Assembly (NCBI GenBank): GCA_963842815.1
Contig: CAWJHU010000002.1
Span: 44,513 to 108,512 of the forward strand
Origin: Candidatus Nomurabacteria bacterium
Lineage (GTDB): Bacteria > Patescibacteriota > Minisyncoccia > Phycocordibacterales > UBA9973
Reading direction: 5' to 3'
Length of the DNA stretch: 64,000 bases
In this document: piece after piece, positions 7,440 to 63,999 of the stretch
Layout: each line of letters starts with the position of its first letter
Numbering within the stretch: position 1 is the stretch's first letter
Program-made: the position numbers and the translations under genes
Notes under the pieces: generated by a model
Told to the model about the DNA's origin: nothing
What the model saw: the letters and a program-made list of their open reading frames with translations, nothing else
Database searches by the model: none

Positions 7440-8636
7440 ATGAAGAAAAAAACAGTGTTTGTCGGACTTTCGGGTGGAGTTGATTCTGCCGTGAGTGCCG
7501 CTATTCTAAAAAAACAAGGCTATGAAGTTGTTGGCGTTTTCATCCGCACATGGCATCCGGATTTTTTGGTTTGCAATGAAGAAGAAGAGCGCCGCGACGC
7601 GATGCGCGTCGCGGCGCATTTGGATATTCCATTTTTAACTTTTGATTTTGAAAAAATTTATAAAAAAGAAGTGGCGGATTATATGATTGCCGAATATAAG
7701 GCTGGCAGAACGCCTAATCCGGATGTAATGTGCAACAAACATATTAAATTCGGCGCATTTCTCAAAAAAGCCATTTTCATGGGGGCTGATTTTGTGGCGA
7801 CAGGACATTATGCGCAAAATAAAAAGCAGATGCTTTTTCACGGCTCGCACTCGAACCTGAATGTGGTTCACGAATCTGATATTGCGTATGCCGAAAAAAG
7901 CACTGCTTTGCATTTAGCGAAAGGGATTGATCCTTCAAAAGATCAAAGTTATTTCCTTTGGACTTTAAAGCAAGAACAGCTAAAGAAAATTTTGTTTCCT
8001 ATCGGTCACCTTAAAAAAACCGAAGTCCGCAAACTGGCCAAGAAATTCAATTTGCCGGTTGCTCAGAAAAAAGACAGTCAAGGAATTTGTTTCCTAGGCG
8101 CGGTAGATCTGAAAGAATTTCTGAAACACTACATTAAAGAAAAAAAAGGGAAAGTAATAAATGAAAAAGGGGAAGAAATAGGATTACACGACGGAGTAGT
8201 TTTTCACACATTGGGAGAACGTCATGGTTTTACCATTACCCAAAAAAGTCCAAATGACGGAGCTTATTATATAGTTGGGAAAGATGCGAAGAAAAATATT
8301 TTAGTAGTATCACAGAACCCAGAGCAGCTGCTTTTTCACGGCTCGCACTCGAACCTGGATGCGGTTCACGAAACTAATATTGCGTATGCCGAAAAAAGCA
8401 CTGCTTTGTGTTCTGTAAAAATTAAAGACACAAACTGGATTTCTGAAATTCCTAAACCCGATAAAAATTATACCGCTCAGATCCGTTATCACAGTGAATT
8501 TTTACCTTGCAAAATTAAAATTATTAATAAAGCAAAAGCCAAAATATTACTTGGAAAACCGGTCCTAGTGGCTCCCGGTCAGTCCTGCGTTATTTATAAT
8601 AAAGATATTTGTTTAGGCGGAGGAGTTGTTATATAA
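7440..8636 (+). CDS. mnmA: tRNA-specific 2-thiouridylase MnmA, with two in-frame copies of an 84-bp repeat
   Basis: PP-loop SGGVDS and other conserved MnmA motifs are present. At 398 aa it is longer than typical MnmA because of two 28-aa insertions (LFHGSHSNL..VHE..IAYAEKSTAL). Confidence 0.9.
   Translation: MKKKTVFVGLSGGVDSAVSAAILKKQGYEVVGVFIRTWHPDFLVCNEEEERRDAMRVAAHLDIPFLTFDFEKIYKKEVADYMIAEYKAGRTPNPDVMCNKHIKFGAFLKKAIFMGADFVATGHYAQNKKQMLFHGSHSNLNVVHESDIAYAEKSTALHLAKGIDPSKDQSYFLWTLKQEQLKKILFPIGHLKKTEVRKLAKKFNLPVAQKKDSQGICFLGAVDLKEFLKHYIKEKKGKVINEKGEEIGLHDGVVFHTLGERHGFTITQKSPNDGAYYIVGKDAKKNILVVSQNPEQLLFHGSHSNLDAVHETNIAYAEKSTALCSVKIKDTNWISEIPKPDKNYTAQIRYHSEFLPCKIKIINKAKAKILLGKPVLVAPGQSCVIYNKDICLGGGVVI
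7827..7910 (+). repeat. 84-bp palindromic in-frame repeat element, copy 1 (inside mnmA)
   Basis: About 93% identical to the copy at 8325..8408. Internal inverted repeats are GCTTTTTCACGGC paired with GCCGAAAAAAGC, and GAACC paired with GGTTC. The length is a multiple of 3 and the element is translated as QMLFHGSHSNLNVVHESDIAYAEKSTAL. Confidence 0.75.
8325..8408 (+). repeat. 84-bp palindromic in-frame repeat element, copy 2 (inside mnmA)
   Basis: Second copy, ~500 bp downstream. It is inserted at a non-homologous position in the C-terminal domain of MnmA and translated as QLLFHGSHSNLDAVHETNIAYAEKSTAL. Confidence 0.75.
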
Positions 8637-10802: not shown

Positions 10803-12635
10803 ATGGAAAATGATTTTTTAAAAAAGAAATATGACCTGCATAATTCACCGGAAGTCAAATCATCGGCTAAAAGAACAGAATCAAGAACCGGCGAAAAAGT
10901 GCCGCAAAATCCAAGCGAGCAGATTCAGAACTACCTTAATCGATTCAGGGAAATTATAGACCGCAAAGATCCCGAACAAAGAGAGCAGGGCATGGAAGCC
11001 CTAAAGAAAGTTTTATACGATAAATTTATTATTAAGCCGGAAGAAATTCCAGAATCATATTTTGAAAATCAAAAAAGAATTGCTCGGGAACAAGGGCATG
11101 GCGATATAGAAATTACAGATGAAATACGTAACCAGCTTACGGAAGTAATAATTTCCGACCAGCAAAGTACCCTGAATAATTGGATTGACTATCTTTCTTC
11201 GCCCGATGCCGCCTATCCCGATTGGCTCAAATATTATGCCTTCAGGAGCATTCTCGGGATGGGCGCTTATGATAAAGAAAAGAAAGAATTTGCCAAAAGA
11301 TCTAAGGGAACTACAAAACCATTTCCGGACATTAACCGCGAGGCTCTAGCCTATGTTTTGGATGCCATTTCCCAAAAATACGGCAAACATCACGTTGATT
11401 TGCTGGCCCTGGAACCGGAAGAGAAAAAGGAATTTGAAAAACTTTTGGAAGGAGAAAATTTTTCCAAACTTTACGCTTGGGCGCTTGATAAAACAGCCAT
11501 TGCTCCGACGGAATCTTTGGAAAAAGTAGCCGGCAGATGGATAAAATATCCCCAAAATTCTGACCACGCGCCTTTAGTTGAGTCCCTTCAGGGTTATGGC
11601 ACTGGCTGGTGCGTGGCTGGAGAATCCGTAGCTAAAAACTATTTGGAGCTTGGAGATTTTTATATTTATTATTCCATTGATAAAAAAGGCAAACCAACTA
11701 TTCCAAGAGCTGCAATTCAGATGAATGGAAACCAAATTGGCCAAGTTCGCGGAGTTGCCCCCGAACAAAATCTGGACCCGTATATTGGCAGCGTGGTGCA
11801 GGAAAAGCTCAAAGAATTTCCCGATGGAAAAGCTTATGAGAAAAAAGTTGGGGATATGAAAATTCTGACTGCCATTGAAAATAAAATCAAAAAAGGAATT
11901 GAGCTTTCTAAAGAAGACCTTACTTTCATTTACGAAATCAACACAACCATTGAAGGTTTCGGTTATCAGCGCGACCCGCGTATTGCTGAACTGCGAGCTG
12001 GGAGAAATGTTAAACAAGATGCAGTAATTATTTTTGAATGCGCTGAAAATCAAATTGCTTACAATATAAATGAGGTAAATAAAAACACCAAAGCATATGT
12101 CGGGAAATGGAGTCCGGAAATTATGAAGAAACTTCCTAAAAATATTGAGCATCTTTATGAATCATTTCCGGAGAAGAAGATATTTCAAAAAACTATTGAA
12201 CTCACGACTAAAACTCCCAAAGAATACGCGCAAGAACTGATTTCCCAAGGGTATAAAATATCGAATTGGGCTCAAGATATTTTAAATAAAATAGAATCAC
12301 TTAAACAAAAAGAAGAGATAGACTTAGTATCATTTTCCGTGGAACAACTTGGGTTCCCGAATGGCGCCACATTGCAAGAAATATATGATAGGGCAAAAGA
12401 ATTTAAGTTAGAACTTTGTCCGTCACAAGCTGGTCCCGAACTTCGTTTGAATTACAAAGACCAGCCTAATGGCGAATATTTAAAAGTCGCGATGGAACCA
12501 ATTAACGACCGTGATGGCGACCCGGGCTTGTTCGGGGTGGACCGCGGCGGCTCCGAGTCGTGGCTCAGCGGCGGCGATGGCGGGCTGGGCGGTTGGGGTG
12601 GCGGCGATCGTTTCGTCTTTCGTTTCCGCAAGTAA
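10803..12635 (+). CDS. hypothetical protein; putative DGR target with C-terminal variable region (CLec/FGE-like tail)
   Basis: 610-aa ORF. The C-terminus ...DRGGSESWLSGGDGGLGGWGGGDRFVFRFRK overlaps a repeat whose second copy lies downstream with adenine-specific differences. Confidence 0.7.
   Translation: MENDFLKKKYDLHNSPEVKSSAKRTESRTGEKVPQNPSEQIQNYLNRFREIIDRKDPEQREQGMEALKKVLYDKFIIKPEEIPESYFENQKRIAREQGHGDIEITDEIRNQLTEVIISDQQSTLNNWIDYLSSPDAAYPDWLKYYAFRSILGMGAYDKEKKEFAKRSKGTTKPFPDINREALAYVLDAISQKYGKHHVDLLALEPEEKKEFEKLLEGENFSKLYAWALDKTAIAPTESLEKVAGRWIKYPQNSDHAPLVESLQGYGTGWCVAGESVAKNYLELGDFYIYYSIDKKGKPTIPRAAIQMNGNQIGQVRGVAPEQNLDPYIGSVVQEKLKEFPDGKAYEKKVGDMKILTAIENKIKKGIELSKEDLTFIYEINTTIEGFGYQRDPRIAELRAGRNVKQDAVIIFECAENQIAYNINEVNKNTKAYVGKWSPEIMKKLPKNIEHLYESFPEKKIFQKTIELTTKTPKEYAQELISQGYKISNWAQDILNKIESLKQKEEIDLVSFSVEQLGFPNGATLQEIYDRAKEFKLELCPSQAGPELRLNYKDQPNGEYLKVAMEPINDRDGDPGLFGVDRGGSESWLSGGDGGLGGWGGGDRFVFRFRK
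12503..12632 (+). repeat. DGR-like variable repeat (VR) at the 3' end of the target gene
   Basis: It aligns with 13008..13140. There are 24 substitutions, all at positions where the downstream copy has A (23 A to G, 1 A to C). There is one 3-nt indel. Confidence 0.7.
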
Positions 12636-13007
12636 CTTAGAACTCAGACACTTAAGCACTTGGAATTTTACTCTTTGATTCTTGTGTCCTTTGACCTTTT
12701 TTCTTTTTTAATTTTTTTAAATAAAAATGATATACTTAATATGGGTAAGGTGAATATGCGAGCGGTCAAGACTTCTCGGTGCCTAACCTAGTATCCATAT
12801 ATCGAGAATATCCACGGCTAAGGCTTTGGGTAGAGTGGTATATACAGAAACTTCATCCTTCAATAAAACTCAGGATGATCCTGAGCGGAGTCGAATGGAT
12901 CAAAAAATGAAGATACTTGGTGTGCGATACTGGTGCATTTAAGATGCAAAATAAAATTCAATCTTTGGAACAATCTGGGGATGGTGACATAGATGGTATT
13001 GCATACA

Positions 13008-13140
13008 TAACGACCGTGATAGCAACCCGAACTTGTTCAAGGTGAACCGCAACGGCTCCGAGTCGTGGCTCAACAACGACAATGGCAGGCTGGACAATCA
13101 TTGGAATGGCGACAATCGTTTCGTCTTTCGTTTCCGAAAA
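13008..13140 (+). repeat. DGR-like template repeat (TR), non-coding, AAC-rich
   Basis: No ORF covers it. It is rich in AAC codons in the frame corresponding to the VR (…NDRDSNPNLFKVNRNGSESWLNNDNGRLDNHWNGDNRFVFRFRK). A GC hairpin terminator follows. Confidence 0.7.
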
Positions 13141-13151
13141 TCTCTTCTTTT

Positions 13152-29147: not shown

Positions 29148-30893
29148 ATGAAAAACGAAGTCAGACAATGCCAGAACTGCAAAAAAGACTTCACCATAGA
29201 AACTGAAGATTTTTCTTTCTACCAAAAAATTAAAGTTCCTCCGCCGACCTTTTGTCCGGATTGTCGGACTATTCGGCGTTTATGCTGGCGAAACGAAATG
29301 TGTCTCTATAAAAGAAAATGTGATGCTGAAGGACATGACGAAAATGTCATTACCATTTATCATCCGGATGAAAAACTTGTAGTGTATGACACAAAAAGTT
29401 GGTGGGGAGACAAATGGAATGCTATTGCTTACGGGCGAGAATATAATTTTTCAAAACCATTTTTTGAACAATGGAAAGAATTAAGAGACAGCATCCCATT
29501 GCAAGCTCTTTCAAATTCAAATGCGAAAAACAGCGATTATTGTAATGTGGCAGAAGATAGCAAAGACAGTTATATGTCCTCAGGCTCTTGGAAAATTGAA
29601 AAAACTTTTTATTCAAATAGAATCGGAGATATCAAAGAATCCTCAGACCTTTATGTGATTCATCGCTCGGAACTTTGTTATGATGATATGTTTTGCACGG
29701 ATAGTTATCATCTTTTATATTCTTTAAAATGCAAAAATTGTGTGGATTCGTATTTTCTATACGATTGCCACGGCTGTATAAATTGTCTGGGCTGTACCAG
29801 TCTTCGCAGCAAGTCCTATTGTATGTGGAATGAACAGCTTAGCCGGGAGGAATATCTAAGCCGTTTAGAGAAATTGAATTTAAAAAGTTATAAAACTATC
29901 TTAGAACTGAAAGAAAAATTTAATGAATTTTATTTGAAATCGATTCATCGTTTTGCCAATCAGGTAAAGGTAATAAATTCTACCGGAGATAATATTGAAG
30001 GAACAAAAAATTGCAAAATCTGTTTTGACACATTTGACCGAGTGGAAGACTGTAAATATTCTCATTGGGATATACGCATTAAAGACGCCTATGATTCGGG
30101 TCCAGGAGGAGGAGAGGGAGAATTACTATATGAAGTATTTGATACCGGTTTGGGCAATTTTCGCAATTTGTTTACCAGCGTGGTATATAGTTCCAACGAC
30201 GTTGAATATTCTTTCAATTGCTATGGCTGTTCGTATTTATTCGGATGTATCGGAATTAGGAATAAAAATTATTGCATTTTAAATAAACAGTATAGTAAAG
30301 AAGAATATGAAGCCCTCATTCCAAAAATCAAAGAGCAGATGAATAAAATACCGTATGTCGATAAAAGGGGACTTGTTTATAAGTACGGGGAATTTTTCCC
30401 GGCGGAAATTTCACCATTTTGTTATAACGAGACTCAAGCGCAAGATTATTTTCCCATAACCAAAGAAAAAGCGTTAAAAATGGGGTACAGATGGCGAGAC
30501 AGAAAAATCAGCGATTATGTGACGACCATAGAGGCTATAAATTTGCCGGATAGCTTAGAAGATATCCAGGATTCTATTACGGAAGAAATTATTGGCTGTT
30601 TGCATAAAGGGAAATGTCAGGACCGTTGCCTGGGAGCTTTTAAAATCACAGAAAATGAACTCAGATTATATCGCCAAATCGGAGTGCCTTTACCACGACT
30701 TTGTTTTATTTGCCGCCACGAAGCCCGACTCCGAAAACGCAATCCGATGAAATTATGGCGTCGAACTTGTATGTGTGATAAGAAAAGTCACGAACATGAT
30801 GGTAAATGTAAAAATGAATTTGAAACTAGTTATTCTCCCGACAGACCGGAGATTATTTATTGCGAGAGCTGTTACAATAAGGAAGTGTATTGA
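29148..30893 (+). CDS. cysteine-rich multi-zinc-ribbon repeat protein, paralog 2
   Basis: CQNCKKDFTIETEDFSFYQKIKVPPPTFCPDCRTIRRL. The N-terminal coding sequence is ~80% identical at the nucleotide level to paralog 1. It has the same internal Cys repeats. Confidence 0.6.
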   Translation: MKNEVRQCQNCKKDFTIETEDFSFYQKIKVPPPTFCPDCRTIRRLCWRNEMCLYKRKCDAEGHDENVITIYHPDEKLVVYDTKSWWGDKWNAIAYGREYNFSKPFFEQWKELRDSIPLQALSNSNAKNSDYCNVAEDSKDSYMSSGSWKIEKTFYSNRIGDIKESSDLYVIHRSELCYDDMFCTDSYHLLYSLKCKNCVDSYFLYDCHGCINCLGCTSLRSKSYCMWNEQLSREEYLSRLEKLNLKSYKTILELKEKFNEFYLKSIHRFANQVKVINSTGDNIEGTKNCKICFDTFDRVEDCKYSHWDIRIKDAYDSGPGGGEGELLYEVFDTGLGNFRNLFTSVVYSSNDVEYSFNCYGCSYLFGCIGIRNKNYCILNKQYSKEEYEALIPKIKEQMNKIPYVDKRGLVYKYGEFFPAEISPFCYNETQAQDYFPITKEKALKMGYRWRDRKISDYVTTIEAINLPDSLEDIQDSITEEIIGCLHKGKCQDRCLGAFKITENELRLYRQIGVPLPRLCFICRHEARLRKRNPMKLWRRTCMCDKKSHEHDGKCKNEFETSYSPDRPEIIYCESCYNKEVY

Positions 30894-30896
30894 CCT

Positions 30897-30950
30897 CACC
30901 CTAACCCTCTCCTGCCAGGAGAGGGGAAAAAGCAAAGGGGTGAGGTGGAA
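30897..30950 (+). terminator. GC-rich nested hairpin (possible terminator; no clear T-run)
   Basis: In CCTCACCC-TAACC-CTCTCCTG-cc-AGGAGAGG-GGAAAAAGCAAA-GGGGTGAGG, an outer stem CCTCACCC/GGGTGAGG encloses an inner perfect palindrome CTCTCCTGcCAGGAGAG. It lies 3 nt after the stop of the 29148..30893 gene and is very GC-rich for this genome. Confidence 0.35.
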
Positions 30951-30980
30951 TTTAAGCTGATTTTGTAGTAAAATAGCCAT

Positions 30981-51042: not shown

Positions 51043-51907
51043 AGAAAATTATTTTTTATTTTTTATCTTGATTGTTGTTGCCCTGGAGGCAATTTTGTTT
51101 TCTATTGGGAACGACAAATCGAATTATGCCTTTCAAAACGAGGAAAACAATATTATAAAAATACAAAATACACTGGCAAATGCTCAGATTCAAGCGAAAG
51201 CAGTATCTGTTTACGATGAAACTCTGAATAAAAAAATCTATGGGAAAAACGACGAAGAAAATTTGCCTATTGCCTCGCTCACTAAAATAATGACCGTTAT
51301 AATTACTTTGAACAATCATAATATGGATGATATTGTTTCAATTTCTAAAAATGCGCTCAAACAGGACACTGATTACGGATTTTTTGTTGATGAAAAATTT
51401 AAAATCGGAGACTTGGCAAAATTTACTTTGATAGGTTCGGCCAATGATGGCGCCTATGCTTTGGCAGAAAGCACCGATAATTTTTTGGAAAAAATGAATG
51501 AGAAAGCGCGAAAAATCGGAATGGGAAATACTTTATTTTCAAATCCCACTGGATTGGATGTTGACGGGAAAATGGCGGGAGCTTATGCTTCGGCGGAAGA
51601 TGTAAACACTATGGCTATGTATGCTCTTAATGCGTATCCTGAAGTTTTTGGTGCGAGCATATTACCGGAAATAAATACAAAATCCGAATCCGGTTTTACT
51701 CACAATATAAAAAATACCGATACAATTTTAGATAAAATTCCTGATGTTTTGTTTTCCAAAACAGGATTTACACCGCTAGCGGGAGGGAATTTAACTGTAA
51801 TTTATAGGAATCAAAACGAGCATATTCTTGCCATCACCGTCCTAGGCTCAACCATGGACGGCAGATTTTCCGATATGGAAAAGATTATAAATCTGTTATT
51901 CCCCTGA
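51026..51907 (+). CDS. D-alanyl-D-alanine carboxypeptidase (S11, PBP5-like)
   Basis: N-terminal signal/TM segment, the SxxK motif ASLTKIMT, and later SGN and KTG-like motifs. Confidence 0.8.
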   Translation: MEPTFKENYFLFFILIVVALEAILFSIGNDKSNYAFQNEENNIIKIQNTLANAQIQAKAVSVYDETLNKKIYGKNDEENLPIASLTKIMTVIITLNNHNMDDIVSISKNALKQDTDYGFFVDEKFKIGDLAKFTLIGSANDGAYALAESTDNFLEKMNEKARKIGMGNTLFSNPTGLDVDGKMAGAYASAEDVNTMAMYALNAYPEVFGASILPEINTKSESGFTHNIKNTDTILDKIPDVLFSKTGFTPLAGGNLTVIYRNQNEHILAITVLGSTMDGRFSDMEKIINLLFP

Positions 51908-51961
51908 CCCAGGGTCAGGGGAATAGAAGTATTTTAAAAAGAAATATGTTAAAATCATTAT

Positions 51962-63270: not shown

Positions 63271-63999
63271 TTAAAATACAATATTCCAAATAAAGCGCAG
63301 AATAAAGAAAACAGCAAGAATTATTATGCCATAAAATAAAACTTTATTATTTAAAATAAATGAAGCGACGGAAAAGAAAAACAATTCTACGTACTTAAAT
63401 GGCTTCAATAAAGAACTGGGCGCCGTCGTTGAATTGGCCGGGGTTTTCGCGTTGTCCAAAGCTTTTATCTCATTTTTTATTTCTCCTTGTTTATTATCCG
63501 AAGCGATATTCGTATTTGTGCGAAATTCTTCCAGCGTATTTACGGCAGAAGTAATGGGCTCAGTAATTGAGCTCGGTGTTTTTTCTGCTATGGATTTTAC
63601 GTCTGAAACCAGGGAAGAAATATTATTGCCTATTTGGGAAACGGAATTTGCATCGGTGGTGCCGGGAACTATTTTCTTGGAAACAGTGCGGGAGCTTTTT
63701 TGGGTCTGATTTTCTGTTAAAGAAACTGCTTGATAGTTTCCAGCGGACACCAAAAACTTGGCGTTTTCAATTTCTCCGAAGATGCTATGGTCTCCGGCGG
63801 TTACTGTCCAGCTAACAGAAACGGCATTTGTGGCGTTTGCCGCCACTGTAAAATCTTTTTTACCCAATAAAACCGTATTATCAAAAAAATTCACAGTGCC
63901 GGATAATTGTCTTGTGTCCGGATTAAAAATCAACGTATAAATCTTTATCTTGTCCCCTTCTTCAAAGGGGTCTTTGGAATACCAAATATTGGCCGGCAC
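63271..63999 (-). CDS. hypothetical protein with C-terminal TM anchor; 5' end runs off the window
   Basis: The ORF reaches the window edge and the first codon in the window is GTG. It is Thr/Ser/Asn-rich and has C-terminal hydrophobic helices. Confidence 0.35.
   Translation of the reverse strand: MPANIWYSKDPFEEGDKIKIYTLIFNPDTRQLSGTVNFFDNTVLLGKKDFTVAANATNAVSVSWTVTAGDHSIFGEIENAKFLVSAGNYQAVSLTENQTQKSSRTVSKKIVPGTTDANSVSQIGNNISSLVSDVKSIAEKTPSSITEPITSAVNTLEEFRTNTNIASDNKQGEIKNEIKALDNAKTPANSTTAPSSLLKPFKYVELFFFSVASFILNNKVLFYGIIILAVFFILRFIWNIVF

Follow-up and report, generated by a model that had tools for sequence, protein, structure and literature searches.

In-frame hairpin repeats in the mnmA gene of a Candidatus Nomurabacteria bacterium: probable copies of a dispersed palindromic element

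The mnmA gene of a Candidatus Nomurabacteria bacterium, located on the 64,000-nucleotide (nt) stretch of contig CAWJHU010000002.1 analysed here (hereafter the window), contains two nearly identical 84-nt segments at different places of a single open reading frame (ORF). This arrangement raises the question of whether the segments are a selected part of the protein, the outcome of a local duplication, an RNA signal, or copies of an element that enters genes in frame. A first, sequence-only reading of the window had likened them to the Rickettsia palindromic elements (RPEs). The data presented below argue, with a probability that we put at roughly three in four, for copies of a non-coding, hairpin-forming (foldback) repeat family of a Paceibacterota clade that is RPE-like in its behaviour.

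Two near-identical inserts in a normal mnmA gene

The host ORF (7440..8636, forward strand) is intact in the ORF list of the window and encodes 398 amino acids (aa). Its product corresponds to tRNA 2-thiouridine(34) synthase, in which the PP-loop SGGVDS and both catalytic-type cysteines (C98 and C217) are kept; it matches at 100% a database protein having PF03054, PF20259 and PF20258, and aligns with the solved MnmA structures 2HMA, 9HLV and 2DER with an E-value of 1e-84. The gene order yceG - RNase T-like - mnmA - mgtC - alaS is common to the window and to the orthologues. Judged from these features, the ORF is a bona fide, normal mnmA.

A repeat finder returned one two-copy family (7825-7910 and 8323-8408) of 86 nt with 81 identical positions (94%), and over the 84-nt coordinates given in Table 1 the two copies, A and B, show five differences (94% identity). 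Both are in the same frame, each adds 28 codons, and the encoded peptides are those quoted in the sequence-only reading. A 21-mer and a 26-mer of the element each have two exact matches in the window and none in 100 shuffles; as had been claimed, no third copy occurs in the 64 kb at up to three mismatches.

The two insertion points are not homologous to each other. Copy A occupies the turn of a beta-hairpin after the ATGHYA motif. Copy B, which had been placed inside the C-terminal barrel, lies instead in the linker joining the central PRC-barrel domain to that barrel. Solved MnmA structures from other phyla have short loops at these places and lack both segments, which appear as gaps of ca. 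21 and 23 aa in the alignment. An AlphaFold2 model (73 homologues, mean predicted local distance difference test score, pLDDT, of 76) further indicates that the two longest stretches with pLDDT below 50 (residues 133-153 and 296-322) are the two inserts, each lying between flanks that are folded with confidence (strands 126-132 and 154-160 for the first insert); shorter dips at 215-220 and 252-264 are not connected with the inserts. Both copies are 28-residue loops, translated at places where the MnmA fold tolerates extra sequence, this compatibility being model-based and concerning MnmA alone.

Distribution of the element

If only the window is considered, which holds just two copies that are 94% identical and in one gene, the segments could stem from a one-off intragenic duplication, by non-allelic gene conversion in mnmA, or from an assembly artefact, with no wider element. 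The objection of an assembly duplication fails on the five differences, on the different flanks of the copies and on the finding of the same two-site arrangement in independent assemblies of relatives (L013, L016, L003/L085 and L102, L designating the loci fetched from other genomes). Furthermore, four genes besides mnmA and dozens of intergenic positions hold copies, in at least 17 genomes, and a one-off event thus retains practically no credibility.

Two scans support this wider distribution. The first, in which the peptide was back-translated and one genome per species was searched, gave 46 loci in 17 assemblies, including seven along one contig of 598,563 bp. At least eight copies are present in that 598-kb genome, and copies number roughly ten per genome of ca. 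0.6 Mb. The second, performed at the DNA level on metagenome contigs with a 21-nt core pattern and hence frame-unbiased, gave 89 matching stretches, with matches stemming from groundwater metagenomes of the Hainich and OW/LW series. With nhmmer, 63 copies were detected in the first locus set and 103 in the metagenome set, and all matches were full-length elements. After removal of duplicates, the fetched loci contained 133 unique copies that fall by their flanks into ca. 40 clusters, 18 of them singletons; this ratio implies that many positions are orthologous and common to several genomes.

The labels of the carriers are of the Patescibacteria type, except for one Burkholderiales and two Saccharibacteria. 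The assemblies so labelled carry the element at L018, L034, L043 (JAMPXW01), L026 and L044; they are probably mislabelled or mis-binned, because the MnmA, TGT and racemase genes found in them belong to the Paceibacterota type. Among the fetched loci, the element is thus apparently confined to genomes of the Paceibacterota/Nomurabacteria type. No viral contig matched the core, giving no sign of a phage vector. When a library of representatives at 50% identity was searched with a 33-aa peptide of the window, only two short spurious ORFs were returned, a result uninformative on host range.

A conserved core between variable complementary arms

The internal inverted repeats noted earlier are present, and the predicted fold of either 84-nt copy is a single extended hairpin (-32 to -35 kcal/mol, z-scores of -3.5 to -5.6, none of 200 shuffles being as good). 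The extent of 84 nt holds for the net insertion but not for the dyad, which is longer in both copies (Table 1); the site-1 region including the dyad of copy A folds at -40.9 kcal/mol and the extended dyad of copy B at -44.1 kcal/mol. A 13-nt unpaired segment follows the apical stem-loop on its 3' side and renders the hairpin asymmetric.

Table 1. Coordinates of the mnmA inserts and of their structural parts in the window (A4, alignment of 56 copies in which column 1 corresponds to 7804 for copy A and to 8302 for copy B)
Feature	Positions	Strand	Length	Details
Copy A	7827..7910	+	84 nt / 28 codons	Residues 130-157, peptide MLFHGSHSNLNVVHESDIAYAEKSTAL
Copy B	8325..8408	+	84 nt / 28 codons	Residues 296-323, peptide LLFHGSHSNLDAVHETNIAYAEKSTAL
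Full dyad of copy A	7817..7915	+	99 nt	Core 7830-7902, imperfect outer arms AAATAAAAAGCAG / CTGCTTTGCATTT; stem extension analysis
Full dyad of copy B	8310..8418	+	109 nt	Core 8328-8400, 18-nt outer arms TCACAGAACCCAGAGCAG / CTGCTTTGTGTTCTGTAA; stem extension analysis
Apical stem-loop, copy A	7853..7869	+		GAACC-TGAATGT-GGTTC; fold; A4 columns 50-54 / 62-66
Apical stem-loop, copy B	8351-8367	+		Equivalent of the copy A stem-loop; fold; A4 columns 50-54 / 62-66

The gapless alignment A4 reveals a conserved core of ca. 73 nt (CTTTTTCACGGCTCGCACTCGAACCTG ... GCGTATGCCGAAAAAAG) having its own imperfect stems. The arms on either side vary between copies, yet the two arms of any one copy are reverse complements of each other (for instance ACAGAATATAAAGCAG / CTGCTTTATATTCTGT in L001 and AAAGAAAAATGATTTG / CAAATCATTTTTCTTT in L010), with a median arm of 17 nt and a mean span of 107 nt for the whole dyad. 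Pair counting over the 56 copies gave 78.9% of paired cells versus 70.3% in shuffles, of which none out of 500 was as high, and double changes at 36 of the 46 stem pairs; the covariation score was 0.300 as compared to 0.10-0.17 when partner columns were slid. Compensated double changes were also found in the arms of orthologous copies (L030 versus L037; L010 versus L024). Columns 34 and 93 form a U-A pair in 41 copies and a C-G pair in 13; the difference corresponds to the swap between LFHG...AEKS and LSHG...AEES in the peptide (F/K versus S/E). Since this swap changes amino acids with pairing intact, the complementarity of the stem is kept at an amino-acid cost.

Direct repeats flanking 130 copies measured 0 nt in 62 cases, 1 nt in 42, 2 nt in 16 and 3 nt or more in 10. 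These values are consistent with the lack of a target-site duplication, the repeats being judged chance-like in AT-rich DNA without a shuffle control. The comparison with Rfam gave no match near any gathering score. A tRNA remnant, evoked by the GGTTC and ACTCGAACC motifs, was rejected on inspection, as complementarity is missing from what would be the T-stem and the motif differs among copies.

Copies within genes

Genes harbouring the element are only five, namely those for MnmA, leucyl-tRNA synthetase (LeuRS), tRNA-guanine transglycosylase (TGT), a PF10672 RNA-type S-adenosylmethionine (SAM) methyltransferase and a PF01177 Asp/Glu (glutamate-racemase-like) racemase. Several insertion sites exist in LeuRS, and L002 has two copies in one LeuRS gene. 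Overall, 28 of the 63 copies in the first set and 44 of the 103 in the metagenome set are inside genes. Among the 44 genuine coding-sequence (CDS) copies of the frame-unbiased DNA scan, 42 are in sense orientation and use the frame observed in the window. In-frame stops are absent from all of 28 CDS copies versus present in 25 of 28 intergenic copies, nearly always in the 5' arm. CDS copies are presumably read through in one stop-free sense frame, because frame continuity is kept only for copies within genes. Antisense copies were found at the same hot spots, in a racemase-like gene (L056:7762-7838) and at MnmA site 2 (L063:8105-8181), where they are read in another open frame (e.g. FSRHTQYYIPKPHSGWSASRGKG); they may reflect either an independent insertion or an inversion between the arms.

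The constant frame, the stop-free CDS copies, the recognisably conserved peptide and the enrichment of tRNA enzymes among the hosts would fit a selected protein module, i.e. a 28-residue interaction or RNA-binding loop duplicated in MnmA and common to other tRNA enzymes, the palindrome being incidental. The following data oppose it: about half of the copies are intergenic, the covariation in the stem alters residues (F/K to S/E or the reverse), the two antisense copies encode a different peptide at the same hot spots, and pLDDT is below 50 for both segments in the AlphaFold2 model. In addition, third-codon identity between the window and its relatives is 0.82-0.96 within the element, compared with 0.51-0.62 over the remainder of mnmA. 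A protein module is hence highly improbable. Because third-codon identity is higher in the element than around it, constraint, or recent homogenisation, acts on the nucleotides and not on the peptide.

Homogenisation is further suggested by core comparisons. Five to eight differences separate the two sites of one genome as compared to 10-13 for the same site across genomes, and copy A of the window differs at only two to four positions from copies of a closely related genome despite their location at another site (L001, MnmA site 2) or in another gene (L002, LeuRS). This within-genome likeness, combined with the orthology of the sites, points to concerted evolution, putatively by gene conversion or core replacement, rather than to independent drift.

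Copies between genes

Of the 52 intergenic copies with an upstream ORF, 43 share its strand and 37 are no more than 30 nt from its stop; many exactly occupy the spacer of convergent genes. The upstream genes are diverse and unrelated (rpsI, CTP synthase, ComEC, H+-PPase, CCA-adding enzyme and others), and the distance from the upstream gene to the intergenic copy shows no frame preference. The T fraction 3' of the core is 0.67 in intergenic copies and 0.54 in CDS copies, and the T run itself pairs with the A-rich 5' arm. In L008, the copy aligns with the regional strand and not with its immediate neighbour genes.

In some relatives, the mnmA neighbourhood contains up to four copies, as at L016:4430-5149, at L025:8878-9597 and at loci like these. 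Two of them, variants whose centre diverges, occupy the spacers yceG/RNase T and RNase T/mnmA, and the other two are within mnmA itself. Spacer copies are missing from the window, since its genes overlap or adjoin at these places.

The position of intergenic copies, 3-30 nt past same-strand stops and often between convergent genes, raises the possibility of a hairpin that serves first of all as a functional RNA signal, be it an intrinsic terminator, a stabiliser of 3' ends or a site for RNase III, with mobility being secondary. It would then have been recruited at gene ends and, in a few RNA-metabolism genes, would modulate expression through attenuation or processing. The richness of the 5' arm in A and of the 3' arm in T, the compensatory changes, the conservation of synonymous sites and the RNA-acting nature of the enzymes encoded by four of the five hosts can all be read in this way. 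On the other hand, G.T cells on the sense strand (104) are fewer than A.C cells (192) and hence give no hint of the wobble tolerance expected of a selected sense RNA helix; without a G.T excess, nothing favours selection specifically on such a helix. A strong terminator in essential genes would be harmful and the T tracts of CDS copies are weaker, unrelated palindromic families occupy the same sites (see below), and both the Rfam comparison and a terminator scan at an intergenic copy were negative. As the primary role, an RNA signal is therefore considered rather unlikely, the two explanations not being exclusive of each other.

Occupied and empty sites in MnmA orthologues

The best 120 MnmA homologues (65-80% identical, all labelled Paceibacterota, Nomurabacteria or Patescibacteria) were compared at the two sites. 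The peptide family (LFHGSHS...AYAEKSTAL or LSHGSHS...AEESTxx) was found at site 1, at site 2, at both or at neither, with 63 occurrences in total. The segments are absent from the solved structures of other phyla, in agreement with an insertion, but they are not private to this genome, since relatives at this distance carry the family patchily. Site 1 measures 13 aa when truly empty (e.g. QNKNFCLIKGIDP) and 40-41 aa when occupied. In two of three empty site-1 orthologues, a short A-tract/T-tract palindrome is located at the exact insertion point (CAAAAA|TTTTTG and CTAAAAA-C-TTTTTAG).

A short version of site 2, 17 aa long and reading ...(V/I)LSHSNILTN..., occurs in homologues P0046, P0064, P0096, P0097, P0109 and others. 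It suggests remnants of the LSHGSHSNL element after internal deletion, in which case some "empty" sites would be decayed elements.

In relatives, no fewer than ten further insert families, mostly of ca. 25-30 aa, occupy these two loops of MnmA. Those that were folded are hairpins, such as a GC-rich palindrome of 168 nt in L001 (-76.9 kcal/mol), and several correspond to dispersed repeats in the fetched loci, one of them ("FALGD") having 24 matches in 21 loci. A peptide search of the window for 16 other insert families gave none. Examples of these inserts are NFSSLRPSPEYRGGTLGKLKIER, PDIFLLKNSSRLAPSRSVASF, FALGDIGQGTHDS, SPLLVEEGVGGGN...TPPxQGGE and FFHGLAGVGDPGNRGPE; the material comprises MnmA orthologues P0002-P0120 and loci L001, L022, L025, L026 and L136-L138.

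A broader and more speculative picture, which we regard as doubtful, is that of a Paceibacterota guild of structure-defined foldback elements. It would comprise at least ten unrelated families, most of them adding ca. 25-30 residues, that home without target duplication and strand-specifically into the apex of DNA dyads (terminators or resident elements), with serial re-occupation of loops in essential genes (the two MnmA sites; LeuRS, TGT, MurI and the RNA methyltransferase) and core exchange. If true, this would be a type of mobile DNA based on hairpin homing or cassette exchange that is not known to have been described in bacteria, and its members would possibly act as portable terminators.

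Proposed origin of the element

In the foldback-repeat interpretation favoured here, the element would have entered its sites as DNA, by a process without target duplication, and with a preference for the centre of short A-tract/T-tract dyads or of existing hairpins. Within genes its survival would be limited to permissive loops and to the single sense frame that is open. Inheritance since then would have been mostly vertical, the element being kept homogeneous and palindromic by gene conversion or template switching, among copies as well as from one arm to the other, and intergenic copies would probably double as transcription terminators or 3'-end hairpins. The element may thus be, or have been, a selfish foldback element of the RPE type.

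Several observations weigh against this interpretation. No transposase or other mobilising gene was identified, although no search was aimed at RAYT/TnpA and whole genomes were not scanned; no recent transposition event was caught either, and with many copies at orthologous positions current mobility is unproven. The third empty site-1 orthologue (L138) has no dyad. Evidence on the origin of the arms is mixed, as the two LeuRS copies of L002 have identical arms and the arms in MnmA, TGT and MurI are site-dependent; these data do not separate arms that could be target-derived, element-derived or formed after insertion. A terminator role of intergenic copies is plausible from their position, and a simple consensus scan of the copy in L023 gave no terminator. 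The sense strand has a positive GC skew at 55 of 66 loci and is also the majority coding strand at 47 of 66, so that orientation relative to replication is confounded with orientation relative to transcription. Finally, the hosts are only five recurrent genes, four of which act on RNA; this restriction is accounted for by insertions fixed long ago, or by some function, no less well than by continuing selfish spread.

Comparison with known repeats

The families RPE-1 to RPE-10 were described in Rickettsia (Ogata et al. 2000, 2002) and are summarised in PMC10969869. The likeness proposed in the sequence-only reading extends to the dispersal of the hairpin: as with RPEs, short palindromic repeats occur in a reduced genome, both in intergenic regions and in frame within unrelated housekeeping ORFs, where a conserved peptide is encoded at positions compatible with the protein fold. 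Differences concern the host phylum (Patescibacteria), the size (a net insertion of 84 nt and a hairpin of ca. 107 nt versus ca. 100-150 bp for RPEs), a much lower copy number, the limitation to five hosts with recurrent hot spots, and the copy-specific complementary outer arms. The comparison, drawn from behaviour and not from RPE sequences, supports the view that the element may be said to work like an RPE and not that it is one.

[quoted passage not shown] In-frame fusions arise from them on occasion, and inversion in place is possible for Correia elements (PMC10969869, PMC5896051). The small size, the inverted repeats, the multiple copies and the lack of a transposase ORF are all found here, unlike the target-site duplication. 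Further differences from MITEs are that no cognate insertion sequence is known and that the conserved part is central while the outermost stem is variable. Split element ends, which would denote such an insertion sequence, were not seen in the 1.5 Mb of loci that were searched.

REP and REPIN elements are mobilised by RAYT transposases of the Y1 HUH type, REPs being extragenic and present in hundreds of copies per genome. With these and other elements derived from IS200/IS605, the present family has in common a hairpin architecture in which a variable centre separates two inverted blocks that are conserved, the absence of target duplication, a location near the 3' ends of genes and an orientation bias, whose relation to replication and to transcription is confounded here. 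It departs from them in having no conserved tetranucleotide beside the insertion point, a large share of copies in genes (28/63 and 44/103) and only ca. 8 copies in the 598-kb genome.

Selfish hairpin repeats are also present in organelle genomes, as illustrated by the GC clusters and double-hairpin elements of fungal mitochondria. Palindromic repeats have been described in the organelles of Volvox (PMC2670323). Organellar elements resemble the present one as selfish hairpin repeats of small genomes, coding regions included, with many families of similar size; they differ in residing in organelle genomes of another composition and in that some are bypassed or spliced rather than translated.

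In Streptococcus pneumoniae, the SPRITE, BOX and RUP repeats (Croucher et al. 2011, cited in PMC10969869) represent several families of small structured repeats that exist side by side, form clusters and insert beside or into one another. SPRITE is similar to a Rho-independent terminator, a likeness that agrees with where the intergenic copies are located here (37 of 52 at the 3' end of a gene, in sense, no more than 30 nt downstream of a same-strand stop). Pneumococcal repeats are essentially intergenic, whereas 40-45% of the present copies are translated in essential genes.

A full-text search of a limited literature collection found no description of palindromic or inverted-repeat in-frame elements in the Candidate Phyla Radiation (CPR), Patescibacteria or Parcubacteria. 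In-frame palindromic colonisation of essential genes, a textbook oddity of Rickettsia, also occurs in free-living or episymbiotic Patescibacteria, and because these are ultra-small organisms with genomes of ca. 0.6 Mb, it looks like a convergent outcome of genome reduction. The variable complementary arms, the multi-family hot spots and the homogenisation within genomes could be new mechanistically; together with the division into core and arms and the absence of target duplication, they point to a hairpin-directed mechanism. In practice, the inserts inflate and misalign MnmA, LeuRS and TGT in annotation, in protein-family models and in LeuRS phylogenies, and spurious small ORFs arise from them. 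They also offer protein engineering a natural map of the enzyme loops that tolerate ca. 28 extra residues.

Other features of the window

Other unusually stable 96-nt folds (-32 to -42 kcal/mol) were detected in the window at 85-180, 51835-51930, 30883-30978, 63523-63816 and elsewhere. Their sequences are unlike the mnmA element and had no match with the peptides of the 16 insert families.

Two segments (12503-12638 and 13008-13146) resemble the variable repeat/template repeat pair of a diversity-generating retroelement. The first forms the 3' end of an ORF of 610 aa with no Pfam match (10803..12635), and the second is intergenic and rich in AAC codons. Over ca. 135 aligned bases, poorly aligned ends being excluded, the differences seen are all A in the template and G in the gene, apart from one small indel; such a restriction to A versus G is odd, as adenine mutagenesis normally yields any base. 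The ORFs adjoining the pair are FtsA-like or without match, and no reverse transcriptase was seen among them.

Finally, three paralogous segments (ca. 20.7-22.0 kb, 29.2-30.5 kb and 33.2-34.6 kb) contain blocks of 124-234 nt that are 64-81% identical and constantly spaced (repeat families D1-D4, D11 and D14), which suggests a small family of duplicated genes.

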